A stretch of 52,641 nucleotides of DNA, taken from Catajapyx aquilonaris (lineage: Eukaryota). Under the pieces are notes generated by a model, which saw only the letters and a program-made list of their open reading frames with translations, was not told the DNA's origin and ran no database searches. The DNA lies in the NCBI GenBank assembly GCA_000934665.2, contig KZ537994.1, positions 124,001 to 176,641 of the forward strand, written 5' to 3'. Shown here piece by piece: positions 1 to 52,623 of the stretch; the first letter of the stretch is position 1; every line of letters begins with the position of its first letter. Both the position numbers and the translations under genes were made by a program.

Positions 1-2404
1 GAGCTGGAATACACAGCACTTACTTCTCGCCCAACACGAAGATGTTGGCTGAAACCATCCTGTGGGCTATGCTGTGCATATTTCCGTCTTTGACCATGAT
101 GCAAGGCCTGATAAACCTGTTCACGCTGAGCCTGAACAACCACCGCTGCCAGTTTATACCACATTCTTTGGTGGCCATGGCATGCTCCTTCCTGCAGAGG
201 AGCGGAGAGGATGTGATGGGACAGACCTGTGCCGATGTGACAAAACACACCAATTTTGCTTGCTGCAGTAAGAATACCGCAAACACAGAGGTCTTCTTCA
301 GCTTCGCCATGCCCATGGATCGACTGCACATGTGGGGCAGTAACTGCTTCTTTCCCGAACGTATAGATGATGGCAAAGTCGAGGACAAAGTTAATTGCGA
401 ATATCACTTCCCGGCCAATGTCCCTGGAATGATGGCGATCTTCGCCATGCTTGTGTTTCAAGCTCTCTTCTACTTCCTGTGTGTATTGCTCATTGAAAAG
501 GGGATCTTCAGGCATTTGTATAATTACGTAAGTACCCTGATTCAGTGCATGTCCAACGTCCAGGTCAGCATTAAATGTGTAAAAGGCAGACTATACACTG
601 TCCGCATACCACCAGCAAAATGCGGATAGTCCTGTCGCGTCGTAGTGCCTTGCAAAACACACCATCCTTTTTTTTCAATCGCGTAGTCCAGCTTGCATGA
701 ACGACTATAGGCTATGTCTAGTTACAATGCGCAATCAGAGATGTTCTTTATACAACCAGCCAGCCCTGTGAATGAGTAGCGGAAAGAAGCACTTTTCTTT
801 CCGCTACTCGTTCATCCTGGAAGTCTGGTTACCCAGCGACCAACAGAGGCACACGGGTGGCTCTGAAGAGTTAGGATAATCGCCAGGCAATTACGCGTAC
901 TGGTGTACTACAGTACAATGCTGTAGGCCTACAGTACAATAACCTACAGGAGAAACCAATCCTTAAATTCTCAGGTCAAAGTTCGTTTTCCTTGACGAGT
1001 TGACGCTTCGATGACGCGGATTCTTATATCTGTCTCCTGACAGATTCTCGGCAAGAAGAATACCCTGCAGCCATACCTCGGGATGTCCCTCAGCTTCGAG
1101 CCAGGTGTCCGTCAGGAGCGCGTGGCCGTGAGCGGCTTCGTGCGTCGAGGAGGCCTGCACCAGAGGGCCCTGGTCCTGTACGAGATGACCAAAGTGTACA
1201 AGAAGAAGACGGCCTGGAGGGGCAGTGGGGATTGGCGCAGCCTGGGGTACCCTCTGTACAACTTGAGTCTGAGCGTGCAGCACGGGGAGATCGTCGGGGT
1301 GGTGGGGCCAGTAGGAGCAGGAAAGACCACCCTGGTGAGGATTCTGACTGGTCAGACCACCCAAACCCACGGGGACGCCTTCCTCTTCGGCACCAGCCTG
1401 CAGTCGGATCCGAACAAGTTCCTGTCCATGGTTGGGTACAGCCCCGCGCACGAAGGGCTGGTCACAGAGATGACCGGGAGGGAGACGGTGGCCCTGATGG
1501 GCCAGCTGAGGGGCGTTTGCGGGAGGAAGCTGAAGCACGAGATTAGCAGGTGGTGCAAGGACTTTGGCATCCTGGAGAAGGAGCTGAACAGGGAGTGCAG
1601 GCTGATGGGGGTGGCGCACAGGAGGATCCTCAGCATCTTTAGCGCGGTGGTGGGACGGCCTCCTCTGGTGGTGCTCCACGAGCCCACCAAAGGTCTGGGG
1701 CCAAGGGCCAAGGCCAGACTCCTCGCGGCTCTCCTAAAGAACAAGAAGAAGTTTCGGGCCTGTCTCGTCGTTTCCAGCAGGTATGACAAATGTCCTGAAT
1801 GTTCATGTAGCACTTGCTTCAGGTAGGTCCTATTCTAAGACCATTCTTAACATGCATTGGCAAATACATTTAGATGACATTATGAGTTGTGATGGGTTAT
1901 AAACGCCTGCCAGTTATATCTTCCAATTAATAATACATATGGAATTTCATGCAGCGTGGAAGACTGCCAGAACCTGTGCCAGAGGATAGGAGTGATGATA
2001 GATGGATACCTCATGTGTCTGCAGTCTCCAGAAGAATTGCAGGTCATGTTTGGAACTGGCTACTTGGTGAAGCTGCTTCTGCACCTTCCCACGCTGGTTG
2101 ACGCACCCTATCAGCTCCAGCAGTTGTGCAAAGACATGGCTTATCACTTCCGGCCCTGCCACATAATCGCCGAGGGACCAGTAAGTCTTTTTCAAAAATC
2201 AAGGAGCGTGGCGTGCATCTCTTGTATTGTTAATATTTGCAGGCTCACATGTTCTACCACCTGAGTAATCCTGAGCTCGACCCTTCGGCCGTGTTCACTA
2301 CAATGGAAAGCTTTCGCCAGCAATTCCGTGTCTTGGAGGACTACACAATCAATGAAAGTAGCGCACAGGCACTGTTCAACATAAGCCACCTGCCAACCCT
2401 TTAA
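1..2404 (+). CDS. ABCA-subfamily transporter, 3' part (end of TMD2, NBD2, C-terminal regulatory domain); 5' end outside window
   Basis: Exons <1-527, 1044-1780, 1955-2180 and 2243-2404 join in frame through GT-AG introns and end at TAA. The translation has Walker A GPVGAGKTT, an 'EMTGRE' motif, 'EDCQNLCQRIGVM' and 'LEDYTINE', all typical of ABCA NBD2 and C-terminus. Confidence 0.9.
754..830. repeat. Small hairpin/MITE-like inverted repeat in ABCA intron
   Basis: TGAATGAGTAGCGGAAAGAA (769-788) pairs with 795-814; outer AACCAG/CTGGTT. Confidence 0.6.
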
Positions 2405-2947
2405 GCTGTAAGGCACATCAACTCCCATAGCCCCGCCCTATGGTACCTGTACAAGTAACCCTTACTTTAGGAAAACCTATTTTCCTGCGAGGGTGTAAGT
2501 TGATCCTGTCCTTTTCTACCACTGTCCTCCCTCAAGGCTCAATTTATTCCTCTCTGTACCTTCCCACTTCCAGTGGTCATCCAAGGTAAAATGCTCCGCT
2601 GCATGAAGTGCACTGAGGTCGGAGAAGTCTGGCTTCATTGTGTATACGTTACACCATTACAAAAGGGGCCTATTACCCAGATCTGTTACTGCAGTGCCAA
2701 ATATGGTAGCAGAGAAGTAGGCTATGAAGTAGACTGTAGAACAGATTGTTGGACAATAAATGTGTTCACTTTTAAATATTTATGTACTGCCAAGGCTGGT
2801 CCTTATGTACTGAATTTTTTTACAGCGTCGTACGACAGAACTTCCCCTTCATTGCTGCATACTATTGCTTGACTTTATCTGGATGCTTCATAGGACAAAC
2901 AAACAACTGATAAACACTACACTGAAACACTCATTCACATGCCCCAA

Positions 2948-5900
2948 TCATTTATTGCTCCATTCAACTTCTTGAGTGAATAGCTCCCGAGGGGTGAAGT
3001 TCCTCACGTTGTAGGATTTAAGGAACACATACCTGCTTCTGAGTTCTTCCATCTTGATAACTACTTGCATACTAGACAGTAGCACAGTGTTCACGTGATA
3101 ATTCATTTGTGACTAAAAGTATACAAATCAAAAAGCTTACATTGAGAAATGATTGCATAACACTTGAAAACAATAGCATTGAGCACAAAATTTAGAAATC
3201 AAGGAATGAGGTTATCATCTAAATTCAGTAACAGGAACTAATGTGTTAATAATAATAATTCATGAGAGCAGCAACAATGTGTTAAGTTTGGAGCTTCTTA
3301 CCTCATTTTCCATAAGCAGAGTGCAAGGTTTGAAACTTCTCTGAAAGTCTTGCCGTAGCTGATGAAGATCTTGGGATGAACTTAAAGCACAAGCTGACTG
3401 GAGCTGAATATTAATGAGGAATCCTGGTTCGCTTATGTTATCTAGCTTGTGTGTGGGAAGCAGGCACCACAGCACTCCACTGCTTAAAATTCCCACTCGA
3501 TGACACACCTGGTCACAGTCCTCCATGCTGGTATATGAGGAAGAACAGCTGAACTTCATTATTATGTCAAAGTATTATATTCGAAACCATCTTGTGATTA
3601 ACTTTTACAATCATTATGCAACAGTAACGGAGCCATTAGGAAATGTTGGCAGTTACTGCACAGAAAGTCAAGGTCAAAGGGAGGTTGCTTATTGAGACAA
3701 ACTGCTTCCCATGTTTCACTTGTACAGGGTGGACGGAAAGTTTCGGACCCTCCCAGGTTTTTTAACCCTACTTTTCACAGCGTCTTTTCACATCTTTTAA
3801 AAGTCCACAAGCAGTTCTAATGTACACTATCTTTTGAAGCATAATCTTGAGAACATATGAGCATCTTCGCTCTCGCAATTCCATTAATAACGTCACCTCT
3901 GTGACTCATCTAAGCATCCTATCTGTTTTGCGTTTATTTTGCTTGTTACCTTGGAGGACCCCTGGTCACCCCTGCGTCAGTTAAGGTTTTTATGACCCTT
4001 TTCCATGAGTTCCCCTTCATGCAAATGTTGTGAACTCACTCCTGACCTTATTTTTCGCATTGGTCCATAACCTGGTCCAATAAAAATTTGAAAAGGAATG
4101 CATGAAATGGCGGACCCGGATGCATTACTTTCGAATTGGTACCGTCACATTTGTCTCCATTTTTACTTTAAAATAATTTTTTGGTGGGAAAGGACAGTAA
4201 ACAGTCCTGCCTTGGTACATTAATCAACATGACACATCCTTTCGTTCACGTCCTTTCGCACCAAAAAATTATTTTAAAGTAAAAATGGAGACAAATGTGA
4301 CGGTACCAATTCGAAAGTAATGCATCCGGGTCCGCCATTTCCTGCATTCCTTTTCAAATTTTTATTGGACCAGGTTATGGACCAATGCGAAAAATAAGGT
4401 CAGGAGTGAGTTCACAACATTTGCATGAAGGGGAACTCATGGAAAAGGGTCATAATAACCTTATCTGACGCGGAATATGACCAGGGGTCCTCCAAGGCAA
4501 CAAGCAAAATAAACGCAAAACAGATAGGATGTTTAGATGAGTCACAGAGGCGAAGTTATTAATGGAATTGCGAGAGAGAAGGTGCTCAGATGTTCTCAAG
4601 ATTATGCTTCAAAAGATAGTGTACATTAGAACTGCTTGTGGACTTTTAAAAGATGTGAAAAGACGCTGTGAAAAGTAGGGTTAAAAAACCTGGGGGGATC
4701 CGAAACTTTCCGTCCACCCTGTAGTTAGACAGCATTCATTATCATGTCAGCAGAACTATTCCTGTGGACACTTGCCCCATTTCCCAGAGTTGCTGCCACT
4801 TACTGACAACCAAGGCATGGAAGCAATCATCTGCAAACCTCACATGAAATGATATCGCATTTAGAGTGTATTCATTCTTTCGGAAATTTATCAATTATTA
4901 CTAGTGTTTGGTGCAGTTGGACAGTTGAAACGTGCTACTACGAGGCCCTCCAACAACCACACGAAACCTTTAGAGCTAAACATCAGTTCTGATGACTGTA
5001 CGGTACCTGGAAGTGACCAAAAGGCTGGCCAGAAAAGTTGGTGTGAATTTTCTAAGGACTGCCCAGAGCCTGTTTCTGGCATTGCTTTCCAGTCCCTCTG
5101 TAGGTCCCTGAAGCAGAAGCATGGGTGGACTGCCCACTGCAGCTACCATGACACTCAGGAAGCGCCTGTGAGGCAATTCCAAGTCGTCACAGCGATAGGC
5201 CAATTGCTCTTTAGTCATGCCCAGAGCTTCAGCCCATTTGGACACCTCAGCTGTGATCTGCCTTCTCTTGGCACCTCTCATCTGACCAACCAAGTGCAAC
5301 ATCTCCAGCCCTGTCAGATCCCCAATCAGACCACCCTCTGTGGAACTCAGACCCATAAGTGAAAGGAACTGTAGCAAAAAGAGAGATATATATAGTGCCA
5401 TTAGCGAACAAAATATGAATTAGATAAATTGTTTGTTAGTACTATCAATACAACTGTTACATTCCTGTATGGAGGCTAAATTCCATACTTTTGGCCGAGT
5501 GAAATTGCCAATGGCCAATACAATTTATAAAATAAATACAACTTCATTACAAACTTTCTTTGGCTGTCGGTTGAGGCTGTAGCCAAAAAGCACTGCATCG
5601 CCATATGAAGGTTTACGTTGACCAGTAAGAAGGCGAACAAGGGTAATCAGTCCAGAACCTGGATGACCACAGATTCCTAGGCACTCCCCAAATCGTATGC
5701 TAAATGTTAAATTGTTGATCATTTCTTCTCCGCCATGTGTTCTGTAGAGTCCATGCACAACTAGAGCTCTTTGATGCAAATTTTCTGAAGGAAAAAAAAA
5801 GTGTAATGCAGCTGGTCTGTTCATAACATTCAAACTATTTTACTCATGATTAACAAAGTTATGTCCACAATAATAACATGCAGCAAATAAGGCAGCCTAT

Positions 5901-8900
5901 GTAACAAATGCTCATATTCTTACAACCATAGCATATATTTTCAAGAGTACTGGTACTACACTTACGTGACCGTATTAATTCAGTGACAATGTGATTCTCC
6001 TCCTGCACTCCTTTACGGTACTCTCGTAATGTTCTGGTACCCATCAGTGGTAGTGGTTGCCTTTTAAAATTCCACCATTTCCTGTACTGTATTCCTTTCT
6101 CTAAAAGAATTAGTAGAGTGAAATAGGCAAGTATCTGTCCTGCTATTACAACCATATCTTCCAATAATCCATGACATGCCACTTCTTGAAATCCTGTGTA
6201 ACTTGTGTCTATCTGAGCAAATGATACCCATGTCAAAATTCAGGTACAAAAATTTTACAAGAGTCTGGACAAATTAAACAACAAGAACATTCAATATGTG
6301 AGGCGTGTGCTGCATGAGCTTTGTAATAATACCAACTTCAAACACCAATTGGGGCTAAAACAAGGCTAAAGAATGAGAAAATTCAAGATGGAAGTTTTAT
6401 GCAGATTTTATATACACCAAGGCAAGGAACCCCAACGAATTCACTGTAAAACTAGTGATGTACCTCTTCTCCAACACTATTTTACAAAAGAGTACATCAA
6501 GAGAATGCTATCTGCAGCTGTATACTTGCAATGAAACATAGCTTTACAGTAAACTCACTGGAACTCTGGCCGAACTGTTGTTATTGCTTGTGGTGATGCC
6601 AGAGTATGCATGCTTGACCGTCACATGGTGCAAGCGTTTTAGTACTTTCTTACCTGCGCATATCTCACAGACTTGCTGTCCCACATGTACAATTTCTCCA
6701 AGTTAATAGTCCACGTAAAATATGGATGTGACATGAGAGTTTGAATCTCTGGTTCTGCAAGATATAAATTATATACATAAATGTTAACCCAACCTTGTTA
6801 TCGAGTTACAGGTGTAGTACATACTGCAACAAGCGTAGTTTGTGCGATTCATGGTCACTTTTTCTGGTAATCCTGCTGTAGGTGGCAAGTAATGGCATGC
6901 TGTTTCCAGCAATTCCTTTGGAATCAAGGAACATCGGGCATTATGTAATAGCAGAGTAAAAAAATCTATCAGTGCCTGTGTTATCAAAAAGTAAGGGAGA
7001 ATGAGAAATGGCCAACGAATGTATTGAGCAAAAGTGGATGTACTGGCCACTTCTTCCAATCCATGGATCCCAACTGCTGTCATAATTCCTGAAATAAATC
7101 ATTGTACTCTGAATATCTTTTACTACGATCCATCTCCTAATCATGTACCTGTAATCGAGTGGAAAAAGGTGAGAAACATGAGAGCAGTCCATTTGCTGCT
7201 GTCCTTGTTTTGACGACAGAAACTGAAGACATAGGAGAATATTAGGCTGGATGCACCTGACAGCAGCAGGACTACTGCGAAAGCAACTAGTGGTTGGAAG
7301 AAACACATGCATTAAAGTGGAAAAGCTTTTTTGTAATATTATGAATATTAAAATGGTTAGTTCAAAGGCTACACTATTTTTTACATTGTAGATGAAGTTT
7401 TGATAGGAAACATACATATTCGTTCTTCTCGTAATACATGTTCAATATACTGTATGCGCCAATACAAATACCCTTCTTTTTATATCCTCCTGAGACCTGA
7501 TGTCCAATATATTGGACATCAGCAAAAAAAAAGGAGTCAACTCAAATATTGACACCATTTTTTTTTTTGGACATCAGGTCTCAGGAGGATATATAACATA
7601 ATATGTACTGTGTACATTATATCACATACTGTTCAAGTACATAGCGACGTAATCCAGGGCCTATAGTACGTGTATGTCTACCGATATTGTCCAGCATGCC
7701 AGGGCAATTCTGAATATGACCTTTTTCCTCCCCAGAAATCTTGAACAACAATTCCGAAAAAATATCACCAGTCATTTTCCTTCTTTGGACACTTCACGCT
7801 CCACCAAAACAGGCTAAGGGTAACAGGAGTAGTAAATCCATTTGTCTTTTCGGGCTAAAAATTAAGAGTTGGAGGACCCTACCACGTTTACAATGAGATA
7901 ATGATTTGTAATCAACCTATTCCATGCCTGTCTTACGGCATCAATGGAAAGAAGATCTGGCTTGCCTGATGGTTATACGTCTTGTATCATGCAGACATGA
8001 GTAGTGTACTGTACTAGTTAACAGCTATACTGACCAATGGATTTGTCGCTGAAAAATCTTCTCTCTGAATCACAAAGTGTCACGAGCCCAACAACTCCTG
8101 CCACTATGAGAATCCAGATGACGAAGTCACATATCAATTTTGTAGACCAAAAGAGGGCAGGACATGCACCAGCCATATGCAGCACTCTATTTGCAAGGCT
8201 CTGTCTATCTTTCATGGGTCTCACCAGAAAAGTTGATAACATATTTGCCATTCCCAGTGCTAGGACCACCGAGGCCATCACACTTGTCCTTGACAGCATT
8301 GAAAATGAAGCAGCGTCAAAAAACATCCTCTGAAAAATAGTACCATTCTTAGCAGAAGTACGTATATTTTTAGACCAAAACATCAGGTGTGTGGCACGAA
8401 AATACAAGATTGTCATTCAATTCGATAAATTAATAAATTAATAAATGCAAGTTCTTATTCACTTACTTCAATTTCTGAAAAATCTAAAAGAGGATGATCA
8501 TAGGTGGTGATTTGGGCATCAATTCCTGCCAGCTGCTTCAGGTATACATTGGCAAGAATATTGAATCCTACAGCAGAACTCTGTGGATAATATGGGTTGT
8601 ACATTATGCGGCTAAGTAATAACCCACTGGTGCTTTTGTAGAGTCCAATGCCACCCAAGCAATTTTGCCGATAAGTATCCGGATCAGTTTCACTTAGGTT
8701 GTGAAAATTTCTCCACTGGGCATTTCCTATTTCTCTTGCTTCCATTTTGCTCGTGCCATATTCTTGCATCTGAGTTATGTAATAATCAGAGATATTCTCT
8801 GGAAAATCTTCACTCAAGACTATTTGAAACAGTGCTCTTGAAGGGATCAAATCTGTAGACAACTTCAGTGGAGAATAACTCAGAATTACATTTTTGGGTT

Positions 8901-11900
8901 CTGCACTCTGCACAGTCGCAAAAGCAAGGCGGGAGGCAGCAAGTAGCAACACGACCTAACAATGGCCAAGAACACCTGTTAATCTGGAAATATTTCAACT
9001 AGACTTATCTACTTACTTGTAGTGTGTAGAACATTATTTGCCTCCAGATAGTTTTATAATGCAGGCATATCAGAAGCAAGATTTTCATCAAAATTCCACA
9101 TACTCTCATATTTGATGTGTTACCTGTAAATTAAGTTTAAATTCAGACTTACATTAACATGGGTCAGTCTGGATATGTTTCTATAAAATTATTGCAATGC
9201 AAGGACAAAATTAATCCACTTTTCACTAATTCTGTAATATGTAGGCTGTTGAAAGATTTCTCCTTCTTATAATCGATTAGTTCTTGCAGCTATGGTTTTT
9301 AAAGGCCCAGTCTGTTATGCAACGCTTGATCATCAATTGACTTCTAGGATGATTATATATTTTAAAATTATCATGAGCATCAACAATAACTAAATGAGAC
9401 TGAACCACTCTTACTTATGCAGACATACCGGTAGTATACACATCGAAACAAATCTGATTTAACTTAAATTAATGATACAAGAGATTAAAATTTATTGAAT
9501 TTCACTCACCATGATATGCGGCACTAAGAGCAGTTTCCTGAGAAAGAAGTTTGTGATACTGACTTTCATCCATTTTAAGGCCCCTTCCTTCAGGAATAAA
9601 CCTGTAAATATGTGACACTAGATCCAATACAAACAGAAATATGGATACAAATATGTAATACTACAAGAGAGTCTACATACTCATAAAAGAGATCCTTGAG
9701 ATTAATTTTGGTAAGTGACAACTTGGCAATTCCTAGCATTTTAGATTCACTCTGAAGCAGGTCAAAAAGGCGAGAAAAGTGCAATCTCTCACACTCTGGC
9801 AAAAAGTATAGTTCTTCCCTCTCCATTCCCTGTGAACTTCTTTCTCTGCGACTGCCAGGTACGTATCTCTTCACAATTGAAGAAATTCGTTTTACTTCAC
9901 ACAAAGAGTCCTTTTTAATTTGCAAGAGAAAGCCAGAGCCTGAAAATAAGTGATTTATTTTTAGAAGTTTTGCCATAATCACCTCATGATTGACAATGTG
10001 TAACTTTCATTTGGTATTTGCAACAAAAGCAATTGCATACAATATGAATTTGCTATTTATGATGTCTCAATACTAAGCCACACATGTAGTTTCACTTACA
10101 TGTTTGATCATGGAAATTTGTTTAAGGCAGTAATAAAATAATATTTGGGGTTACCTAAATGATTTTTGACATAACGAGTCCTTCCATGACAAAGTACACT
10201 CCCTTTGTCTATTGCAATTATGCAATCACCAATCTCGAGGGCTTCCTGCAAGTTTCTGGTAGCCATCAACACAGTTGAGCTACCTATACAATCCTGAAAT
10301 GTACAGCTTTTCATGTCAACATCTCTTTAGAACTATATAGTTACTGCCGGTACCAAAAGGTCAAAATATTATTGAAACAAAAATAAAGCCCAAAACAATT
10401 CCCCCTTTTTTTGCTTATCCATGTAAGATCCCGTCCTTCTGGCACAAGCTGCAGGTATTCAGAAATTCTTGTACTAGTGTTTGATAGCATTTAACTTGCC
10501 AATCAAACCCTACTTATTACAATTAACACTATTACACTAATATACTCACAGATATGCTTGCCCAAAGATCCTTTATTGACATATCGTCAAGTCCTGCTGC
10601 AGGATCATCAAGAAGAATCACCTGAATGAAAACAGTGATGTTTTAAAACACTACAGGAAGGTCCCAGTCCACGAACGGGGTTACATTTCTGAGAACTTTC
10701 GTAAGTCGGATTTGTAAAAGTTAGCAATATAATGCTTCAAAGTTAACATACCATACATTACTTACATATTTCTATATTTCAATATATTCTTAGAGAGCAC
10801 ATACTTAAATGAATGGCTGTTTTGCAACATGGTATTGGCACATTCCTTGTAACCTAGCCTATTACTAGTACGGGTATAGTCCTTACCTGTGGTTCTCCAA
10901 GGAAGGCCACACATAAAGAGAGTTTTTTAAGAATGCAATGTGGAAGTTCCTTTGGCTGTACGTGGCGAACTTTTATCAGCCTGAAAAGTCGCAGGCATTT
11001 GTTTACTACCCTCTTCTTGTCTGCCACTGGCACACCTTTCATCTGTATCAGTAAGAAAAGAGCAGCAAAAGGTTTTGTGCAACAATGACATACTGGTTGA
11101 TACACCATGCAGGCTAATTATTATAGAGACTGTAAAACTATGTCTGATGCTTAGGCTGCAGGTTACATTATGGAGTGCTTACGCAGCCCATAAGAACAAA
11201 ACAGGAAGGTGACGTAGTTCACCGCCAGTACTGAAAACATTAATACTTTTTCGCATTATTTATCTGTGGTACCTGAGCAAAGAAATGTAGATTTTCTTCA
11301 ACAGTTATATGCTCTGCAAAACATTTAGCTTCTTGAATATAGTATCCAAAACAGTGTCGTGGTAGCTTCTGCAACTCCCTCTGTCTGTCATTTGCAATCA
11401 TATATGCCAATCCACTCTTTGCATAATTGGTACCTGCACAAAATATTCACTTTAACAAAAAATTACACCAACTTTCCATTGCTAATAAGGTTCATCTCAC
11501 CTGCCAAGAAGTTTAAAACTGTGGTTTTACCAGATCCAGATGGCCCCAGCAAGACAGTGACTTCTCCTTGCTTTGCCACAAAATTAAGGTCACTGACAAT
11601 TTTTTGCCCACATAATTCTACAGTAAGGTCTTCCACATATACACCAGGAATGGATATATGGAAAGTGCCATCCCATTCTGCACATTCTTCGTGGAATGGG
11701 CCCCACCCAACTGAAGGGGGCCATGAATCTTGATCATACATTCCTATCTCATCTCCTTTTGTGGATGGATTAACCTTGGTGCTACTCTTTTTCCTTGCTA
11801 CGCACTGAAAATATAAAGTCTGAAATTAGTATTTAATAACAACAAATCAACTAGATAAACCCAATGATTGGTACAATCAAAAACAGTACCCTGCAGCACA

Positions 11901-14900
11901 AGTGAAACTGAAACTATTGATTGTACATAGCTTTTGTCAAGTTCAGGACACTAAGTAAAACTTACCACAAGAGTCTTTAAGTTACTTATTGCATGTGATT
12001 TTTGTGTGCCAAATCCAGCTAAGACACATACTTGTATGCAATAAAAGACTATTTGTCCTGCAAAAACAAGTATCACTTGCAGCAAATTGATTGTATCCGT
12101 TTTCCCAGGCAAGTCTATAATTTCAAAACTTGGAGTCTCATCTACAGTGCTCCAATCCAAGGTCCTGTCTGGGGAATCAAACTCTTGTCAATGTCAGGTT
12201 CAATAATGATTTGTCACTCGATCCATGTGGTCCACAATAAATTGCCCTACTCCTTGATGAGCATCAAGCTCTGTGTCAATTATCACTGCTAGCATAATGC
12301 TACATAACTGTGTCATTCCTCTTTCTTGAGTTTTGGTTTATGCTATGCAATGTTCAGTACAAATTAAGAGCACTAAAGTACGATAATTAAGAAGCACTTA
12401 ATATTAAGATAAGCCTTGCACTGCAAAACCATAGGATCTGCAATGCCAAATTATAAGAGTCATGTTTCCTGATTTTGATCTATGAGGTTTTGCTGTTTGA
12501 AGGTAGCTTTATTTCTCTGGAGTCATTTGTTGCAACTTTCTCTAGGAAGTTGCAATTTCTATATCAGACCTAACTTGATCATTACGAATTCGAGGATAAT
12601 TTTTTAAAGGGCAAACATAATTTGAACATTACGCTCCTCTGAGTGCTTTTCCTTCAGATCTATATATGATTCCTGCTTCGGCTTCCTCTTAAACTGATGC
12701 AAGCATTTAAATAGACAATAGCTCCAATCATTCAGTCTCTTTTTACCCAAAATCTATATGGGTTTACTTTCAAACATTTCAGTTTTGGACCACGTGGTAT
12801 GTAGCACACCGAAACTCACCCTCTAGGTAGAAAAGTGATATGATGCGGCATGCAATAGAGAGTCCTGTATTAGGATGAATGGCAGCCAGAACGTATTTGG
12901 TCCAAGCACCCATGGAATAGTAATTAGGTCCAATCCAGAATGATGAAAATATCCATGTAGCCACCCAAATTATGGCAGTTGCAATAGCAGCAATAAAAGC
13001 TGCAAGAAACACTTATTAAATACCAGTTCTGATCTTGTAATTACAGGGCACTGAAAGGTTTGGTTGAAAGAGACAATCATATTTTACCTGTATTGCATAT
13101 TGCAGTGATGACCAGAGTGAGGAACAAACAAGACAGTGAGTAGCACAGCAGGACTACAATCAATACAGATGTGGAAAGCATTTCCAAAGGTGCTTCTTTA
13201 ACATGCACAAGTACATCAACAACATCAGTTAACGTCAAAATCGAGGAAGACAGACACACTGCTGGCACAACTGTAAGTAGCGCACTAATCATCCATGAAA
13301 TGACCTGTACTAGAGGGTGGATTCCGTATTTTTTTAGAGTATCCTGTGACAAGAAGGATTTCATCATTAATACTGGAACATGCAATCCAACAATACATGA
13401 AAATTATTAGCCACACCCACAACTCACTGTCAATCCTAATTCCTTTTCACGAGCCAATCCATAAGCAAGGGAAACCCAGTGGATAAGAAAGCTGTACATA
13501 ATATTGGAAGAAAGATACTCAAGATGCACAAATCGTCTATCTTTCAGGACTAGCATTCTTGATTTAGAGAAAGGAATTGCTCTGGCAGAAAATCCTCCCA
13601 CCATTGAAGAATCTGCATTTGAAGATGGAAAATTAATGTAACAAAGGATGCACACAAAATGTGTGTCTAGTCACCCTTCTTACCACATAGATCTTGGCAA
13701 CTCATTTGTATAAAAGCTCTGTCAATTGCATTTTGTACTGCTAGAAATTTAGATGTCAAGTAGTACTGTCCTGCTGGAATAAAACATGGTATTACTTAAT
13801 TACTCAAAATCAATTATATCAGTTGTGTTTGGCAAAATAATATTAATAATAGTAGTACCACTTAATGTGTCTCTCCAACATGACAAACACTGCAAACCTG
13901 TCCATGAGAGACCATAATATCCTCAGTCCTCAGTGGAAATATTATTGCTGTCGTTTCATTTCAGTGTAGAATTATTTGTGCATTTCTGGCATAAAAAAAC
14001 ATAAATCTGCTAAATTTGGGATTTTTTTAAAAAAATGGCCGAGAATGGCACTATTGTGAACAGACGTTATAGTCATAAAGTTATTTAATTACAAAACATT
14101 TCCAGTTTGAACTGGGTTTGAATTTTGGGTTGAATATTTTCTCCACAGATCATTCAAAGATTTCAAACCCATCATTTTCCAGGCCCTTATTAATTATGGA
14201 TCTTTTGTCCCTGTTTAATGCTCATATCCAATGAATAAACAAGATACAGTACCAACAGGGTCATAAAAATGCAATGCAAATGCTAGCTTACCTTTCACAG
14301 TGGTTTCATTGGGTCTGGTGTACCAGGACAAATGCTGTACATGGAGATTGTGATTATATCCAGGAAATCTGAGGGTGTAGGTTAGGGCTGGAGGTGTAGA
14401 TGAACTGTTTGCCACACACTTTGAGAAACTGACAAGACCCAAGAAGTTTGTGGAACTGTGATGGTAAGCCATTCCTGACATTTTATGCACATCCTCTTCT
14501 TTTGAAAGTGGGATAAGGTCTACGCATTTGAAAAATTATTATTGTATTAGGAGGCCAATCATAATTCATTCATAGCAAATGTGCCAATATGAGCAGAAGG
14601 TTTGCCCATTCCCACATCTTCCAAAGTTCCAATATGTCAGTGAAAACAAGGTCAATGAGGAGGGATGTACAAATTGCACATTTTCAGCATATTCAGATGT
14701 CAATTCCCTGTTTTCCTAGTTATTTTCAAAACATGGTTTCTTGTCATGTCACTTCCTTTTGCTCATATCATGCAACACTCTAACAAACATTTACTTGCCA
14801 ATACGATGGGGATCTCCTACTAATTCTTTCATCTTTTCCATAAGCTTCCGAGCGAAGCCTCCAGGTGGAGTATAGGCAAGCTGTAGCATTCCATTCATTT

Positions 14901-16159
14901 GAGGACAGGTATTGTTTTGTAAGGCATATGATTTAATTTCATAATCTTGCTCTAACTGCTCCCCCTCTGGTTGTATGGAATTTTTGGCAACTAACTCATC
15001 AGCCACATATGTTTTGAAGCCACCATCAGCATCAAATGGATCAATTTCTGTAAGGCTGCCATACAGCATACATTCTGGATCATAATTTTTAAAGCTGATG
15101 TGGTATGTGTTTGTGTCCTCAAAGACAGGATATTCAAGAGACAAAGCCAAAAGAATTAAGGATGCAATAGTTGGTAATATTAGTTCCAGAAGTGTTATTG
15201 GATACTGCCTTTTCCTCTCCTGGACATGCTTCCACATCAGTGCCCGGAACTGAGGGCAAACACCGCAGATCATGTTCTGCTTGTGCCTGCTGCTTCTAGT
15301 TCTGGAAAAGGAGGAGGACATCATACAATTATTTGCAGTAAAGGGCACTGCCATACAGGATTTGAAATCTCCAGACTGTTGAATCTGTTTATTTTCACCC
15401 GAAATATTTTGTTTCTGAATCTAGACGCAGTGTCAACCAGAAAAGTGAATGCCTAGTTGCCTATAATATAACAAGTCATCTGAACTGAGAAAATGGTCAG
15501 AATGTTACGGATTTGTACTTTGTTGTTTTTTATTGTAAAACACATTTTGTTTGACTATTCCGGTGGCTTTCACTTCCCTAGCTTTGACACCTTCATTCAC
15601 CAAACAGCTTTAGGGTATGTTTTTGGTCCCTCTCCAGGAAGCTGGGGAAGGGGCGCTGAGGAGAGGTAGAAGCGAGCCGCCCGCTTCCACATCTCCTCAG
15701 CGCACCTTCCCCAGCTTCCTGGAGAGGGACCAAAAACACACCCTTAGGCCTTAATGTTATAAATTAATTAATGTATCCTATGAATTTCCTATCTTCTCTA
15801 GTTTTATGCATTTATATAAGTTCTGGTCCCAAAGGCAACCCTTTGTGTGGCCGTAACCTCATCAAAAATTGATATTCTTTACTGGAATTTTGCTGGCGAA
15901 TTTCCCTCCCTCCTCCACAAGTGGGAGTGATTTTAAATGTGTTTGAGAAACTTTACATTAGCCTGTTAATGTGCTATTAGTTATAAAATCATATTTACTT
16001 ACAAATAATCTATGCATAAATGCAGGTTGTAAAACCCTTACAATATATTAACACATGCACTGGCATAATTTTACCTGCTTTCGATCATTTCTGGCATCGC
16101 TAAACTGATGTGCTTGTGGCTCCACCATCCCATACAGTTGGTCATAAAATTGAAATATA
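2948..16159 (-). CDS. Full-length (TMD-NBD-TMD-NBD) divergent ABCA-subfamily protein, about 1,850 aa or longer
   Basis: Phase-consistent exons: 16159-16075 (tentative), 15420-14799, 14519-14292, 13773-13684, 13612-13428, 13343-13088, 12999-12820, 12168-11966, 11804-11501, 11433-11273, 11042-10887, 10621-10550, 10293-10155, 9939-9681, 9601-9510, 9123-9017, 8955-8467, 8329-8035, 7286-7149, 7088-6825, 6754-6654, 6212-5966, 5784-5555, 5368-5007, 3527-3302, 3112-2948 (TGA). ABCA hallmarks include QFRALMWK..KR, FLAVQNAIDRAF, REKE.G, GPSGSGKTT and TVEENLHFFA. The 5' end is uncertain. Confidence 0.88.
3725..4721. mobile_element. Foldback non-autonomous Tc1/mariner-type element (about 1 kb palindrome)
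   Basis: TA|CAGGGTGGACGGAAAGTTTCGGA … TCCGAAACTTTCCGTCCACCCTG|TA. Arms 3725-4195 and 4250-4721 are near-perfect inverted copies. Confidence 0.9.
7481..7594. mobile_element. Small MITE with 27-bp TIRs
   Basis: TATATCCTCCTGAGACCTGATGTCCAA … TTGGACATCAGGTCTCAGGAGGATATA, plus an internal palindrome CTGATGTCCAATATATTGGACATCAG. Confidence 0.75.
15613..15743. mobile_element. Hairpin MITE, PIF/Harbinger (Tourist)-like
   Basis: TTA|GGGTATGTTTTTGGTCCCTCTCCAGGAAGCTGGGGAAGG … CCTTCCCCAGCTTCCTGGAGAGGGACCAAAAACACACCC|TTA. 3-bp TTA TSD, and almost the whole element is self-complementary. Confidence 0.82.
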
Positions 16160-17290
16160 CTGCCTAACAATCACCCCCTGTACTGTTGCTAATCAACGCC
16201 ATAAGTATTTGTACCCATGGTTTCCAATACTGCTAGGCTCTGACGGTGCACGGTGATGCCAGGAGGGAAGCAATAATGGTGCTTGAATCGGCCATGCATT
16301 GCCATAAATGCAAAACCGTAGTGTGTCGATACGATATTGGCGGCCAGCTGTTGCTTGGATGACGTCATCACAATCCCTCCTGCCATCTGGCGTCATTTCC
16401 TTTCCCCCCCTCCCNNNNNNNNNNNNNNNNCCCCCCCCCCCAACCAGACAGGTGTTGCATCAAAGCGCATGCGTGGATGAAGGCGGGCTCCAATCAGATG
16501 GCCCCGAAGGCACCAAAGGCGACCAGAAGGCGCGGGAACATACGAGCGCCATCTTGGATAAAGCACCGTGTGTGGCTGCCCGCCGGTCAGGTCGGGCTCT
16601 CCCTCGTTTTCGGTGATTGTGGCCTCCACCCTCAGGCATCGGTACCCGTGATGAGGCCGAGGGACACAACTCAAGCCGCCCCATGTGTGTGAGTGCCGAC
16701 GTCCGTCCCGTGCTGTCGGCTCACGTGCAGGACGGAACACGGAAAATATGCCCAAGCACGTCAGGACCAGGTAAGGAACTACGTTCGACTGATTGGAGGG
16801 GCGGCCCGCAGGGCCGGAGGTATACTTGCGGGGCACTGGAGCTGGGTTGTAGAAGTCAGCTGGACGTTGGTTCTAGGCCTGGTTGCATGATCCTGCTTCA
16901 ACCGGAGTATGGTACTGACATCACAAGTAGCAATGAGGTCAGTACCATGCGCTCAGGTTGAATCAGTAAGTACGGAACTGGACCACTTGCGCAGGATTTA
17001 CTACCAGTTGTGCAACCCTCCCTTTCAGGACCGCTTCCATGATGGTTGATACTCGTCATTCACTTGACAAACGTTGTCTAACAATAAATGTAGGAAAACC
17101 GATCACTTGTTCTTGATTTTCTAATGAGGATTCACCATTTTAGGGTTGGTTTTTGAGTAAATCCAGTAAACGCTATTTAGTCCTAGGTGAAAAAATTGGC
17201 GCAGGGCCTTTATGGTCGGGTCGGCGTAACTCGGACACAGGCCTAGGTGAATAACAATGGATCAACCACCGCTTATGAAGATCGATTGCA

Positions 17291-30871: not shown

Positions 30872-33800
30872 ATGCTCGGCCAGCAGGAAATGTGAGTTTT
30901 ATGTGCATTGGGGCTAGTTGCGCGTTGCGGGAAATTGGGCGCCAAAATTGCGTCATAGGCGGGTTTTCTTGTTACTGATGTAGCATAAGTGCTGCCTCGA
31001 TTTTCATGGGATCTGTGGTTATCTCAATGGATGTACTGTTTAAGTGTTGCATGTGAAAATTAAGCAATTGGTTTGCCCAGTATACGAAATTATGATGATC
31101 ACTTATTGAATGAAGCCCTGAAAATAGTACCGGCTGGCAGCATGGTATCACAGGACACATGCTAAGAAAAAAGTTTGTTGTCTTTTGTTGCTGGAAACAG
31201 AATATGGCAAACTCAAATTCTCCCTACTAATTGGCACAGGGTTGCCCTGTGACCAGGCTTTAGAAGCACTCAGATTTAGAAGGGACTTGGAAGAAATGTA
31301 AACACCTAGATTCCTTCCCCACTACCTTTCCTGAATTAAAATAGTACAGGCTTCTAGTGGAAGTTCCCCTCTTCATACCTCTTCTCAAGTAAACCATAGT
31401 TTTACTTTCCACCATGTTAAACTCGAAATATTGGATGGTTCTCTTATTAGGCTTCAACTAGGGAGAGGGGCCTTTCCATACCAGGTTAGATTAATTTTTT
31501 GCTGTGCATCACGTTATATAATTTAACTGGCATGGTATGGCTACTAACATGTTATGTGAAAGGCATCCTCTTGTTTTCCTCAATGTTTCCTAGTTGTAAA
31601 AATTTGCTTTGGAAACTGTTAAAATTTAGGCTGCTGCAGTATTTCCATGAAACCCCCTCATGGTAAATGTGTGCAATATTTTCTGTTATTCTTTATGCGG
31701 AAAACATACACTCTGGCAATGGTGGCATGGTGTGCATATTTCAGTGGAATATTCAGTGTTGTTTTTGGGCACTGAGGACAGAATTGAAGAGCATCTGATC
31801 CCTAGTGCATGAAACAACGTTTATAGACAATTGAAAGTAACGCAAACCTTGCTATGGTCAGGCATATCGTCAGCAATATCAGCAATGTGAATATGAGGGA
31901 TTTTTGAGAGAGGGGCATAACAGAGGAATCCTGAGACAACTCATACAAACAGGGCGAGAACCTGTTGAAAGTTGAAACTTTCCCATGAAAAAATCCTCCA
32001 TGCAACTTGGGATCAAACTTGAAACCTCAGAGGTGCATTCCTAATTACAACACTAACTCATAATTAATCTGACAAAATGACGAATTCCATATTTTTGCTA
32101 AAATGGGATTATGGTCTCTGCCGGCACCATCAAGTATTGGGTCAGATTCTGACAAAACAGTGAACCCATAGAACAAGTGGTGTCAGAGTGAGAACGGAAA
32201 ATATAAACGCCATCTTATGTATTTTTATGGCAGTTTGCAGGTTCTTTTGGCTCTCTTGTAAAATTAAGAAAATGTTGAATTTGTCCTTTTGTCAGATTAA
32301 CGATGAACTCTAGTCCATGGAAATTGTAGTATGATATTTCCATATTAAGTGATCATTGCATATACTGTATCGTTATGAGATGAGGAACGTTACTTGCTGC
32401 ATTTGTCATGGGAAAGGGAATAAAGCTTCTTGAAGATTGAGACACAGTAATAGAAGAGAGTCACTTGAGCTTTCAATTTTTAATTGAAATGGTTTTTGCA
32501 GTGCACCAGCTGAGAGAAGCAGTGCAAGTGTGGACAGCTGGTCAGACGACTCACTTTATGAGGAGCCAGCACCTCGAGCAGTTCAAAAGAAGACATCAGT
32601 TGGGAAGAGTCGTTGGAGCAAGGAGGAAGATGAACAGCTAAAACACCTTGTGGCTGTTCATGGGGAATTCTGGGATAAAATAGCACCTCACTTCCCTTGC
32701 CGATCAGAACTGCAGTGTCAGCAGCGGTGGCAAAAGGTTGTCAATCCAGAACTTGTCAAAGGGCCCTGGACCAAAGAGGTATGCTGATAATAGTTCCCAA
32801 AGAAGCTGCAGTACCTGTGTACAATTGAAACTTAGATTAGTGGCGATTATTATGGATCCAATATTCACAACTCATATTTATTGGGATTTTAAAATTTAGT
32901 AGCAGCAAGTGAGCGTAAGTTGGATTGGCATTAGGCATAATTTTGTTGGAGCAGGAATTTTGTGTTCTACTAGAGAAAAAGCAGCTGCATATGGATGAAA
33001 CTTCAGTGGAAGAATATATTATTTGGTTTGTGTAGTCATGAGGGATATGAGTGCATGAAATGAATGACAGATAGAAGGTGGAGATATTAATGTACAATTA
33101 CTAGCTATGAATGAGTGTGAAGGGAACATTTTATGGCGTGAAGAAATCGATTTTTGAAAGATTGTCTTGCTGGGCAGTTGATCAAGCTATGGGATAAATG
33201 CATGGACATTGTTCACAGCTGTATTTTGAATATGGTTGGCTCATTTGCTTCATCGTGTGATTGTGGTCATAGTAGTTAAATTAATGTTCATTTTTTTGTA
33301 CTTAAATTTGCCAACTGTCATTGTGATGAATTACAGGAAGATGAGAAGGTGGTGGAACTAGTAAAAAAGTATGGGGCGAAGAAATGGACAGTTATAGCAA
33401 GATGCTTGAAGGGTAGGATTGGCAAGCAGTGCAGGGAACGCTGGCATAACCACCTGAACCCAGCAATCAAGAAGACTGCTTGGACAGATGAGGAGGATCG
33501 AATCATCTTTGAAGCCCATAGGGATTGGGGGAATCAGTGGGCCAAGATTGCCAAGTTGCTTCCAGGAAGGTTTGTAAAAAGTTTTAAATTGTGCAAACAG
33601 TGAGTGGACATCTACATGTACACAGACAGCCAAGTCACTAGCTTGAAGTTATTGATTCGTTTTAAAATCTGTTATTGTGATACCATGCCATGTCCCCTTT
33701 CTTGTTAGAAGCATCATGCAGAGCTGCTCTTCCTCAGCCACTGGCAAGATTTTAAGCACATGATATTTACTTGCAGGACTGACAATGCAATAAAAAACCA

Positions 33801-36800
33801 TTGGAACTCAACGATGCGGAGAAAGTATGAAGCAGACGAATGTGGGCCTCAGGAAGCGAGGAGACGCAACAAGCGCGGCAAGAGTGATGTGCAACAATAC
33901 CAAGAGCATGTCAGCAGTCCACAGATGTCCACTTCAGACTTTTCTCTAGATCTCCTCCAAACTACTGTCCAAGTTACAGAATCATTCCCTTCGCAAGAAA
34001 CGCCTGTTCAAACTTCTAATTACACTCAGGTAAAGTACACTATATCTTGGAGCATTTCCAAGCACCTTTTCTGCAGGCTAGCTAATTTTGGAGTCCTTTC
34101 GTTTCAGGATGCTTCAGCTTGGTCGCAGGTCTGCTACGATACGGTAGTTGAGGGCAGCACTGCTTACCCACCTAATCCCAGTCCCAAAATTGGCACCATC
34201 TTACCAACTTCCTCTACTCCTAGCTCCACCCCTTGTGCTACACCTACACCAACCCCTCAGTCATTGTGTGCATTCGAACTGGAGTATGCAATGGAGGTTT
34301 CACCGTCACACTCTAGTCTTGATCCGGATATATCGAATATTTCACCTCTAAAGTGAGTGGGTCTGAGTATTCAAGCTTATACGGACTGCAGATTTCAGTG
34401 TAATCACACACGTTTTGTCACTCTAGATACTTGGATTTGGATGCATTGGTTCAACAACAGAGCCCGGTGAAGCAGGTTAACACTTTTAACTTATTAAACC
34501 AGTTAGATTCTCCACCACGTAACTTGATGAAGCTGACGCCTGTGAAGCAAACTAGGGTGACTGTCAAGAAGGAAATGCTAAGTACGAGGCTTGTGTTAAG
34601 TGGAATTGAGGGCAATTTAAGCATGGCATTAATCTTTTCAGGCTACACGTTCTCAGGTGACACTGTGGATCAGGCATTGAAGCAAGAGTCTGCATCAGGT
34701 GGGTTTGTGCCAATGGCTTCTACAGTGGTGTCCAACAAACTGGCCACTCCTCCCATCCTTCGTCGACGCAACCACTCCAGGTCCAAGTCAAACGCCAATG
34801 GAGATGATGAGGATGATGATGAAGATAGGAGGGGAGCCATGCTTCTTTCTGGTATGACCATTGAAGACATGATGCTGGCAAACTCTGTGGGTATCAAGGA
34901 GGAACCTCTCAACACTCCAGAGAAGGCTCCTACTACTCCAAGGAAACTACCATTCAGTCCATCACAGGTTGGGATATTTTACGACTCGGATGATACATAA
35001 AATTTGCCTCTCTTGAATACTAGATGACTATTTTTGCTCCTGCAAACCTTTTTTTATGTAGTACAATCAAACTTGTGTAGTACAAGGGATCAAGATAAAG
35101 ACTGTGTACAGCCAACCCTCTTATTCACCATAGTGTTTCTTCATCCATCATAGTCAAAGTACTGTTTTTATATACAATGACTGTGATACAGCAAAACCTG
35201 TCTGCAAAGGACATGCCTTCCACAAAAATTTTGCTCACGGTAGCTTCCATTGTGAGAGACAAAAATGCATTGAAAATAATTTGTCAAGACCAAACAGCAG
35301 TTATGTGTTGGACAAGTTTTCACTGTATTACAGAGGGTGTTTTTCTGGCGAAGTGATGATCCAAAGTAGGGGTGATAGAAAAGAGTGGATGGATTAGTTA
35401 CTCTAGGGCTACATAAGTACTCCAGTCCTGATTTGGCGCAAAATTTTAGGTGTTTTTATACACCTTCCTGCATGCCTCTGACTTCATGTACGTGGCCAGA
35501 GGAAAAAATCCACCAGCTCTTCCCCATGCCCAGCTCTTTGGATTGTCAACTTGGGGAGATAAACACCCTTTATTATTATTTTTGGCGGTATTAAACACTG
35601 TATTATATATTACAGACAGGTTTCGCTGTGTAACTGTTGTGGTACATTTAATTGAACGCAGTTATTTCATCAAGTTCATTATTGGTCTTGCCAAATCATG
35701 TACTTTTGATGTGTTCTTAACATCTATTTGGATATTAAAGTGTATTCACTGCAGTTTTCAAGTTTACTGACTTCAGAAACCAATGGTTTTCTCCCTATCA
35801 GTTTTTGAATAGCCCGGGAGTCCCCTCATTCCAACTCAGCCTGAGCCCAACAGTCATGCGAGGGTCAACTGCAGTCCCATCCGCCCACTCCACCCCTCTT
35901 CCCTATGCAACGGAGGCCCATCATCCCATGACTGGCAACGACAGCAGTGTCCTGTCCACTCCAAAAGGAATGCTGGTGAAGACACTCAACTCCGGTAGCT
36001 CCCTTGTAATGGACATCACCACTTCCTCTGGCTCATCCAATGTTGTGGCAGGATTCTTGCCTACTGACACCACAGAGCACAGAGAGTCATTCCACACACC
36101 TAAAATGGAGAGAAAGGGTGTCACTCCAAGGACACCCACTCCTTTTAAACATGCCTTGGCAGAGCTGGTGAAGAAGAGTGGGCCAGTCAAGTACTCGGTG
36201 TGTTTCTATTTGTGCCCTTTATGTAATCTAGTTCCTTGTCCGACTGAAGAATGATGCAGCCCTAAAGGTTATTCACAAGTGCACGGGGAAAGTGCACAAA
36301 TAGGCGTGAAATAAGTAGGAGAGCTTGTGCCACTGTAGGAAAACAGATTATGAAATTCTCAATGCATTGGTAGAAAACCTAGGCATGATAACAACTGGAT
36401 GTTACAGCTGCAATGGCCATGAAGATTTAAGTCAGGGTTATGAAAGTGAGAAAATTCAGCCTCCTGCTGAAGCAAAATTCAGCTACGACCATGTGCGTCG
36501 AAGGATATGTTAGGGAATTGACTTTCATTATTGTACAGTTATTGTACAGCCGGAGCTCAGATAGTTGATCATAGGACAGCCTGATAGGCAACTGATTCAT
36601 CTCAGACATGCCATAATTGGGTACATCAGGCAAGAAAACTCGATTGGTCGAAAATATACTGCAGGCGAGAATTCCACTGGACAAAATGTTTGGCGAAATT
36701 TCAGGAAAAATGCAAAAATCTGCTGCAGCTGCTACATATCCACAGCCTGTTCTAGTTTGACTGCCTCTGAGGAGTTTGATTCTTTGATGTGCCCTTTGAT

Positions 36801-51021: not shown

Positions 51022-51140
51022 GCCAAGGGCCATACCACGTTGAAAGCACCGGTTCTCGTCCGATCCCCGAAGTGAAGCTACGTCGGGCCCGGGTAGTACT
51101 TGGATGGGTGACCGCCTAGGAATGCCGGGTGCACTTGGCT
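51022..51140 (+). rRNA. 5S rRNA gene
   Basis: 119 nt GCCAAGGGCCATACCACGTTGAAAGCACCGGTTCTCGTCCGATC…AGTACTTGGATGGGTGACCGCC…CTTGGCT. Helix I ends pair, and an oligo-T Pol III terminator follows. Confidence 0.93.
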
Positions 51141-51225: not shown

Positions 51226-51344
51226 GCCAAGGGCCATACCACGTTGAAAGCACCGGTTCTCGTCCGATCCCCGAAGTGAAGCTACGTCCGGCCCGGGTAG
51301 TACTTGGATGGGTGCCCGCCTAGGAATGCCGGGTGCACTTGGCT
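51226..51344 (+). rRNA. 5S rRNA gene (variant copy, possibly pseudogene)
   Basis: Tandem copy 204 bp after the first, with two private substitutions (CGTCCGGCC, GGTGCCCGCC) and a T5 terminator. Confidence 0.85.
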
Positions 51345-52504: not shown

Positions 52505-52623
52505 AGCCAAGTGCACCCGGCATTCCTAGGCGGTCACCCATCCAAGTACTACCCAGGCCCGACGTTGCTTAACTTCGGGGATCGGACGAGAACCGGTGCT
52601 TTCAACGTGGTATGGCCCTTGGC
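52505..52623 (-). rRNA. 5S rRNA gene, inverted orientation
   Basis: Reverse complement gives a 119-nt 5S with canonical GAAGTTAAGCAACG, the same 5' flank (GAAGAAGCACCCTCTCTC) and a T-run terminator. Confidence 0.93.

Follow-up and report, generated by a model that had tools for sequence, protein, structure and literature searches.

The 52,641-nucleotide stretch of the Catajapyx aquilonaris genome analysed here (assembly GCA_000934665.2, contig KZ537994.1, positions 124,001 to 176,641; hereafter the window) carries on its minus strand, from 15273 to 2948, a gene that by homology is a member of the ABCA subfamily of ATP-binding cassette (ABC) transporters, an ABCA3-like full transporter gene. 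Eight of its ten key catalytic positions are non-canonical, and there is no canonical ATPase site in either nucleotide-binding domain (NBD), as a first-pass annotation made from the letters alone had claimed. With modest confidence, we lean towards the reading that the gene encodes a maintained, non-hydrolysing ABCA3-like protein that would at most bind ATP at NBD1; the usual ATP-driven pumping is something that such a protein probably cannot perform. Motif states were read from a profile alignment of the protein with its 150 nearest ABCA representatives, in which the ten key positions were scored:

Walker A: GPSGSGKTT in NBD1, lysine kept; GHPGSGLIT in NBD2, lysine replaced by leucine
Q-loop: YYIQEA in NBD1, glutamine kept; LSSTEG in NBD2, glutamine replaced by threonine
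Signature: LPHCILKKLS in NBD1, SGG replaced by PHC; LELPHRRFLS in NBD2, SGG replaced by ELP
Walker B: VILLDD in NBD1, glutamate replaced by aspartate; MLLLQG in NBD2, Asp-Glu replaced by Gln-Gly
H-switch: MATRN in NBD1, histidine replaced by arginine; serine in NBD2 (VTSS, which spans the exon 23/24 junction)

The only exceptions to the loss are thus the Walker A lysine and the Q-loop glutamine of NBD1. All ten motif states given in the first-pass annotation are present: GPSGSGKTT, LPHCILKK, ILLDD, ATRN, GHPGSGLIT, LELPHRR, MLLLQG and VTSS, with no Q-loop glutamine in NBD2 (here LSSTEG). In each NBD the signature and Walker B, read directly, have the canonical spacing of 25 residues. The ABCA pattern of canonical motifs in both NBDs is absent from this protein, whereas 136 of the 150 nearest representatives show no deviation at all, nine show one, three show two and two show six (P0118, which is a fragment, and P0044). 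An alternative NBD exon that carries canonical motifs was found neither in a profile scan of window positions 1-16500 nor elsewhere in the window.

The losses fall unequally on the two ATP sites. Site 2 (the P-loop and Walker B of NBD2 with the signature of NBD1) has lost the P-loop lysine, the Walker B Asp-Glu, the Q-loop glutamine, the H-switch histidine and the partner SGG, and is predicted from these motifs to be unable to bind nucleotide. Site 1 (the P-loop and Walker B of NBD1 with the signature of NBD2) retains the P-loop, the Mg-binding aspartate and the Q-loop glutamine; here the catalytic glutamate is changed to aspartate, the switch histidine to arginine and the partner SGG to ELP. 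The intact P-loop, Walker B aspartate and Q-loop glutamine are predicted to allow Mg-ATP binding at site 1, and a protein that binds ATP and does not hydrolyse it fits these three elements better than one that does not interact with nucleotide at all. ATP-retaining, non-hydrolysing sites exist in CFTR, MRP1 and TAP1, and site 1, which has no catalytic base, switch histidine or partner signature, would be like them. Because the protein has no consensus ATP site, a hydrolysis-driven cycle is not expected. In the most likely working mode ATP at NBD1 would be a structural or regulatory ligand, without a transport cycle driven by its hydrolysis, and the conserved membrane and extracellular domains may have a lipid-binding, lipid-presenting or regulatory role; the first-pass annotation had suggested that the protein may be a receptor, a scaffold, a passive lipid conduit or a nucleotide sensor.

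The gene model on which these readings depend is a homology-guided splice model. An ABCA profile of 1653 positions was made from 97 of the 150 nearest representatives, those of 1550-1900 amino acids, and all 865 stop-to-stop open reading frame (ORF) pieces of at least 12 amino acids in window 1-16500 were scanned with it. Twenty-two minus-strand ORF blocks match the profile in strict order, from profile position 9 to 1580; 15 of the 22 have an independent E-value (i-Evalue) of 0.01 or less, and the remaining seven are weak (0.03-4.9) yet in order. Two NBD1 blocks matched the corresponding NBD2 profile positions, and three small additional exons were located in the gaps between profile-matched blocks. 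Junctions were solved with a simple splice-site matrix and the profile score of the joined peptide, with no close relative as a guide. The result has 25 exons, all introns GT-AG and no internal stop, so that the exon count and open frame given by the first-pass annotation were rebuilt. Its spliced length of 5,571 nt was not reproduced: the coding sequence is 5,361 nt including the stop (1,786 amino acids) from the likeliest start, ATG 15273 (context AACATGA), and 5,442 nt from an alternative in-frame ATG upstream at 15354. Position 2948 is the final base of the stop codon and 15420 is the upstream limit of the first ORF. The parts of the gene, with the transmembrane helices (TM), extracellular domains (ECD) and regulatory domains (R) assigned to them, are as follows, all on the minus strand:

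14795..15273, minus: exon 1, with the ATG, TM1 and the start of ECD1 (profile positions 9-101, i-Evalue 6.5e-07)
14292..14455, minus: exon 2, ECD1 (junction solving; acceptor uncertain, 14428 an alternative)
13684..13770, minus: exon 3, ECD1
13428..13612, minus: exon 4, end of ECD1, with an EKE motif ahead of TM2
13088..13343, minus: exon 5, TM2-TM3 region (profile, hydropathy)
12820..12999, minus: exon 6, TM4-TM5 region (profile)
11966..12168, minus: exon 7, TM6 (hydropathy)
11501..11804, minus: exon 8, start of NBD1; Walker A GPSGSGKTT at 11546-11520, lysine retained
11273..11433, minus: exon 9, NBD1 Q-loop GYYIQEA at 11347-11327, glutamine retained
10887..11042, minus: exon 10, NBD1 signature position LPHCILKKLS at 10946-10917, SGG to PHC
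10550..10621, minus: exon 11, NBD1 Walker B VILLDD at 10621-10604, aspartate retained and catalytic glutamate to aspartate; D-loop AGLD
10155..10293, minus: exon 12, NBD1 H-switch MATRN at 10266-10252, histidine to arginine
9681..9939, minus: exon 13, regulatory domain R1, ending ...LGIAKLSLTKINLKDLFYE (profile)
9510..9601, minus: exon 14, linker; the least certain exon
9017..9123, minus: exon 15, segment ahead of TM7
8467..8955, minus: exon 16, TM7 and ECD2 (profile, hydropathy)
8035..8329, minus: exon 17, TM8-TM9 (profile, i-Evalue 1.5e-11)
7149..7286, minus: exon 18, TM10 (profile)
6825..7088, minus: exon 19, TM11 and a Cys-rich loop (profile)
6654..6754, minus: exon 20, loop ahead of TM12, uncertain (splice scores and a longer loop in the paralogue described below)
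5966..6212, minus: exon 21, TM12 and the linker to NBD2 (profile)
5555..5784, minus: exon 22, start of NBD2; Walker A position GHPGSGLIT at 5668-5642, lysine to leucine and Ser/Thr to isoleucine
5007..5368, minus: exon 23, with the NBD2 Q-loop position GLSSTEG (glutamine to threonine), ending ...LLVTS
5182-5153, minus: in exon 23, NBD2 signature position LELPHRRFLS
5122-5105, minus: in exon 23, NBD2 Walker B position MLLLQG, Asp-Glu to Gln-Gly
3302..3527, minus: exon 24, remainder of NBD2 (H-switch serine across the junction) and R2 domain
2948..3112, minus: exon 25, C-terminal end of R2 (...YNVRNFTPRELF...), stop codon 2950-2948
2543..2548, minus: candidate polyadenylation signal AATAAA, about 400 nt downstream of the stop

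No profile position is skipped at any of the 24 junctions, and 1,484 residues lie in match states. The donors are mostly GTAAGT, GTGAGT or GTATGT, and the acceptors are CAG or TAG after pyrimidine-rich tracts. GC content is 0.42 in the exons and 0.356 in the introns, and is higher at first than at second codon positions (GC1 > GC2). Intron 23, which is 1,479 nt long, also contains a near-perfect palindrome (3723-4195 and 4250-4723), with arms of 246 and 222 nt (complementarity 96% and 98%) and a 54-nt gap between the inner arms. A foldback element, an inverted duplication of recent date or an error of assembly could each account for it.

A chance origin of this series of ORFs is excluded, because the spliced protein aligns with representative P0030, its nearest full-length match, over residues 218-1771 at 24% identity (full-length BLASTP, E 6.6e-102) and because exon ORFs of 130-209 codons occur in DNA of about 40% GC. 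The best full-length BLASTP matches are ABCA representatives. Alignment with ABCA proteins and Pfam, which the first-pass annotation had proposed as a check, came out in favour of its family assignment: the gene is co-linear with the ABCA profile and block 11466-11825 matches ABC_tran (Pfam E 1.4e-08), as well as ABCA3 and ABCA4 in PDB (E 1.4e-07 and 3.5e-07). The NBD2 block 4979-5419 matches PDB ABCA4, ABCA1, ABCA3 and ABCA7 with E from 2.7e-15 to 1e-11, above all other chains, and in this alignment 'lelphrrfls' stands opposite the ABCA4 signature and 'mlllqgpteg' opposite Walker B. The H-switch exon matches PDB ABCA4 and ABCA1 at the expected place with a weak E of about 0.3, and a PDB search with the 52-amino-acid NBD1 signature exon gave no match at E <= 10. 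For the single-exon pieces of the transmembrane domains (TMDs) Pfam gave no family, ABC2_membrane_3 (PF12698) included, and 18 of 24 pieces matched no family; the ECD2 exon, searched in the ESM Atlas, matched nothing but unnamed eukaryotic clusters (0.90-0.92).

A hydropathy scan places TM1, ECD1, TM2-6, TM7, ECD2 and TM8-12 as in ABCA proteins. TM1 covers residues 26-44 and the following helix starts at 313, and TM7 covers residues 942-960 with the following helix from 1128, so that the protein has the two large extracellular domains that mark ABCA proteins, one from TM1 to TM2 and the other from TM7 to TM8. R domains follow both NBDs (profile positions 706-788 and 1464-1580 are matched), and their conserved phenylalanines, Phe 787 and Phe 1579, are retained. 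The order in the single polypeptide is TMD1-ECD1-NBD1-R1-TMD2-ECD2-NBD2-R2.

A second ABCA gene, recognised with the same profile, lies tail to tail with the first, and its 3' part falls within the window, its NBD1 being beyond the edge:

3..2404, plus: 3' part of the second ABCA gene
3-527, 1044-1780, 1955-2180 and 2243-2401, plus: its exons
2402-2404, plus: its stop codon

The NBD2 of this paralogue matches ABC_tran (Pfam E 1.2e-18) and retains Walker A as GPVGAGKTT, with its lysine, and the Walker B glutamate. Its Q-loop glutamine is changed to alanine, its signature position reads MGVAHRRILS, its H-switch residue is serine, and in its Walker B, LVVLHEP, histidine takes the place of the aspartate. 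Common to the two genes are therefore the loss of the NBD2 Q-loop glutamine, H-R-R at the signature position and serine at the H-switch. In a mixture-model IQ-TREE analysis of 50 rows and 440 columns the paralogue is the sister of the first gene (Shimodaira-Hasegawa approximate likelihood ratio test (SH-aLRT) 100), with a stem of 1.64 substitutions per site for the pair and tips of 1.58 for the first gene and 1.03 for the paralogue. The two are 34.6% identical over 518 aligned codons, with proportions of synonymous and nonsynonymous differences (pS and pN) of 0.824 and 0.446; dS between them is not computable because pS is saturated. Since the shared deviations occur in a paralogue that is 35% identical and saturated at synonymous sites, part of the degeneration would predate an old duplication, and the shared Q-loop loss, H-R-R pseudo-signature and serine are most simply explained as ancestral to it. 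Both visible reading frames are open despite the age of the duplication.

Two intron positions are common to both genes, and the paralogue is without two introns inside NBD2 that the first gene has. Its GC content at third codon positions (GC3) is 0.73, against 0.39 in the first gene, with only 544 bp between the two stop codons (2405-2947). The high GC3 and missing NBD2 introns may stem from intron loss accompanied by GC-biased conversion, or from an expression regime quite unlike that of the first gene. An AATAAA on each strand, at 2755 (plus) and 2543-2548 (minus), is a candidate poly(A) signal, and the two imply that the convergent 3' untranslated regions overlap.

That the first gene is a decayed pseudogene is unlikely, as the first-pass annotation had held, because the frame is open, the junctions are seamless, the splice sites are canonical, part of the degeneration is ancient and shared with the paralogue, and no acceleration of rate is seen. 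The 1,786-codon model contains none of the marks of a pseudogene that were looked for (stops, frameshifts, lost splice sites, missing segments). Tajima relative-rate tests with seven outgroups gave 34-45 changes unique to the gene and 32-42 unique to the paralogue (p 0.2-0.9). Most of the residues that it retains are structural (tryptophan, proline and, away from the signatures, 23 of 25 glycines), and it is the residues of the chemistry that are lost. The seamless model, the kept glycines, the even rates and the lack of alternative exons suggest a fold held by selection with catalysis abandoned.

An explanation close to decay is that of very recent inactivation or relaxed drift, in which a redundant tandem duplicate has lost catalysis and has not yet acquired a stop or frameshift. 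We consider this rather unlikely, and the evidence on it is divided. Among 152 highly conserved columns (a single residue in at least 85% of representatives), the gene retains 80 of the 151 that are filled, 34 of 64 in NBD1, 30 of 59 in NBD2 and 16 of 28 elsewhere; this retention of about 53% is the lowest of all compared sequences, below all 150 representatives (regional minimum 68-73%). Its terminal branch is the longer of the pair, and it has lost the NBD2 Walker A lysine and Walker B glutamate that the paralogue keeps. No orthologue was found: a paralogue-NBD2 query matched 119,410 proteins at E <= 1e-3 in a library of 1.84 billion representatives, not one of them more than 35% identical, and when exon 1 was used as a query against longer proteins none of 544 candidates scored. 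Inactivation so recent would have to fit a 5.4-kb frame with neither stop nor frameshift and 24 seamless canonical introns, which leaves room for only a very short neutral period, whereas the motif losses are many, set in a deep divergence and in part older than the duplication. The absence of acceleration relative to the paralogue and the selective keeping of structural glycines also speak against it. Several of these observations nevertheless count against the maintained, non-hydrolysing protein that we favour: relaxed constraint would give the same low retention and the same long branch, and a dN/dS constraint on the lineage of the gene itself is not measurable because no orthologue was found. 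To be set beside them on the same side are that pN/pS adds the two lineages together and the GC3 shift distorts it, that nucleotide binding is read from motifs only, that the gene is known from genomic sequence alone, and that the model has weak donor scores (by a crude matrix) at exons 9, 13, 19 and 22 and three uncertain regions with alternative solutions, namely exon 2, exons 13-15 and exons 19-21.

Those uncertain regions, together with the homology-guided nature of the model and the N runs elsewhere in the window, are also what could be said for an artefact of gene modelling or assembly, in which the real transcript has other exons, or the sequence has errors, and the true motifs are canonical. 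This is extremely unlikely. All ten motif positions lie in long, unambiguous, strongly scoring ORF blocks outside the uncertain exons, neither window 1-16500 nor the sequence beyond it contains a second copy of an NBD exon, no N falls within 2948-15420, and the same NBD2 pseudo-signature occurs in the independent paralogue. It is also conceivable, and in our view decidedly improbable, that the protein is an active, if slow, ATP-driven transporter that uses non-canonical chemistry at site 1. The retention of GPSGSGKTT, the Walker B aspartate and the Q-loop glutamine in NBD1 would allow this, and the available part of the review PMC7756269 reports residual ATPase activity in ABCB1 variants with both Walker B glutamates mutated. 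The catalytic glutamate, switch histidine and partner SGG of site 1 are, however, all replaced, and the second site is dead, so that no consensus site is left, while every asymmetric full-size ABC transporter discussed in that part of PMC7756269 keeps at least one. Taken together the evidence argues, at the level of sequence, against a fresh pseudogene or a modelling artefact in favour of a maintained non-hydrolysing protein, and it does not prove expression.

Farther along the window there is a multi-exon MYB gene (32488-37500, plus), in which Pfam recognises Myb DNA-binding repeats and a Cmyb_C domain. The sole word-based database match of one C-terminal exon is a beetle Myb-related protein B at 35% identity, and this low match suggests a poorly sampled invertebrate lineage. 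The low GC3 of the ABCA gene was considered as a sign of decay and rejected, as this conserved MYB gene has similar values (0.43-0.53) and it is the ABCA paralogue that is the outlier. Three 5S ribosomal RNA genes, scored by Rfam at 87.6-102 bits, lie on either side of a run of 175 N (51878-52052):

51022-51140, plus: 5S ribosomal RNA gene
51226-51344, plus: 5S ribosomal RNA gene
52505-52623, minus: 5S ribosomal RNA gene

The closest known counterparts of the ABCA gene are arthropod ABCA3-like and ABCA3 proteins, which have the same domain order, two extracellular domains, an R domain after each NBD and a similar length of about 1,600-1,800 amino acids. The IQ-TREE analysis puts the gene together with ABCA3-like proteins of cricket, mealybug, wasp and ticks in a clade of 18 rows (SH-aLRT 90), and the gene differs from these relatives both in its very long stem and in the number of its deviations. 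Tick proteins also have non-canonical residues in both composite sites. P0044, one of the two representatives with six deviations, is a protein of Ornithodoros turicata named ABCA3-like by NCBI, and it has relatives with the same deviations in five more tick species, at 48-63% identity (Haemaphysalis, Dermacentor, Rhipicephalus, Ixodes). These tick proteins have the signature L[NT][AT]G and His to Asn in NBD1, and Walker A Lys to Arg, Gln to Glu and the signature YGSG in NBD2; the pair P0159 and P0160 has Walker B FFDC and CSSTHRRKLT, again with H-R-R, at the NBD2 signature position. In the set of proteins compared there, 78 of the 99 of at least 1000 amino acids are without deviation, and all seven with five or six deviations are from ticks. 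As an observation in its own right, non-canonical residues are conserved across soft and hard ticks at both ATP sites of P0044 and P0152-P0160, which are annotated as ABCA3-like or ABCA17-like, and a literature search at record level found no paper describing such deviations. The tick clade is milder than the Catajapyx gene: P0044 and P0152-P0154 keep the catalytic glutamate in both NBDs and their lysine is changed to arginine rather than lost, although P0158 and P0159/P0160 are without the NBD1 catalytic glutamate.

Whether this resemblance is one of descent is less clear. In a BLAST comparison with the Catajapyx protein none of the tick proteins ranks above 86th, and in the best mixture-model IQ-TREE tree they form a neighbouring subclade apart from the window genes; the resemblance may thus be convergent. 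A tree constrained to unite the window genes with P0044, P0152, P0153, P0158 and P0159 in one clade is not rejected (log-likelihood difference 10.4, approximately unbiased test p 0.249), in a setting of long branches. A common origin and convergence may both be considered. A FastTree grouping of the window genes with P0044 (0.936) was not recovered by the mixture-model analysis, and we treat it as possible long-branch attraction. We tentatively raise the possibility, which we would put at well short of even, that an ABCA3-like lineage that includes the gene and its paralogue, possibly with an ancestor in common with the tick clade, gave up ATP-driven transport long ago and has been kept by selection as non-catalytic 'pseudo-transporters', with ATP at NBD1 only a structural or sensing ligand and the membrane and extracellular domains acting as a lipid receptor, chaperone or regulator. 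If true, it would make these proteins the first family of full-size ABC transporters to have no consensus ATP site; a literature search at record level found no paper that describes degeneration of both sites in an ABCA protein or in any other full ABC transporter. A maintained ABCA protein of this type would be a natural experiment, because current transport models, as presented in the available part of PMC7756269, depend on one consensus site. It would show which tasks the ABCA scaffold can carry out without hydrolysis (lipid binding, presentation, regulation or ATP sensing), and would bring ABC transporters within the concept of the pseudoenzyme. To judge from the paralogue and the tick proteins, forms of this kind lie hidden under 'ABCA3-like' in automatic annotation.

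The statement of the first-pass annotation that ABCA proteins normally keep both sites is too strong, because a subset of human ABCA proteins deviates in nucleotide-binding site 1 (NBS1), according to the part of PMC7756269 available, and tick ABCA3-like proteins deviate in both sites. ABCA9 (P0190), for example, has His to Gln in NBD1 and SEG as its NBD2 signature. The pattern seen in NBD1 of the Catajapyx protein is that of the ATP-retaining NBS1 which the same part of PMC7756269 describes for CFTR, MRP1/ABCC1, SUR, TAP1/2 and human ABCA6-like proteins: an intact P-loop, a residue other than glutamate after the Walker B aspartate, a changed H-switch and a degenerate NBD2 signature. The likeness ends at the other site. 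The single consensus site typical of ABCC, CFTR and TAP proteins is missing here, and where the asymmetric CFTR, MRP1, SUR, TAP and ABCA6-like proteins keep a canonical, ATP-hydrolysing second site, the second site of the Catajapyx protein has lost every key residue.

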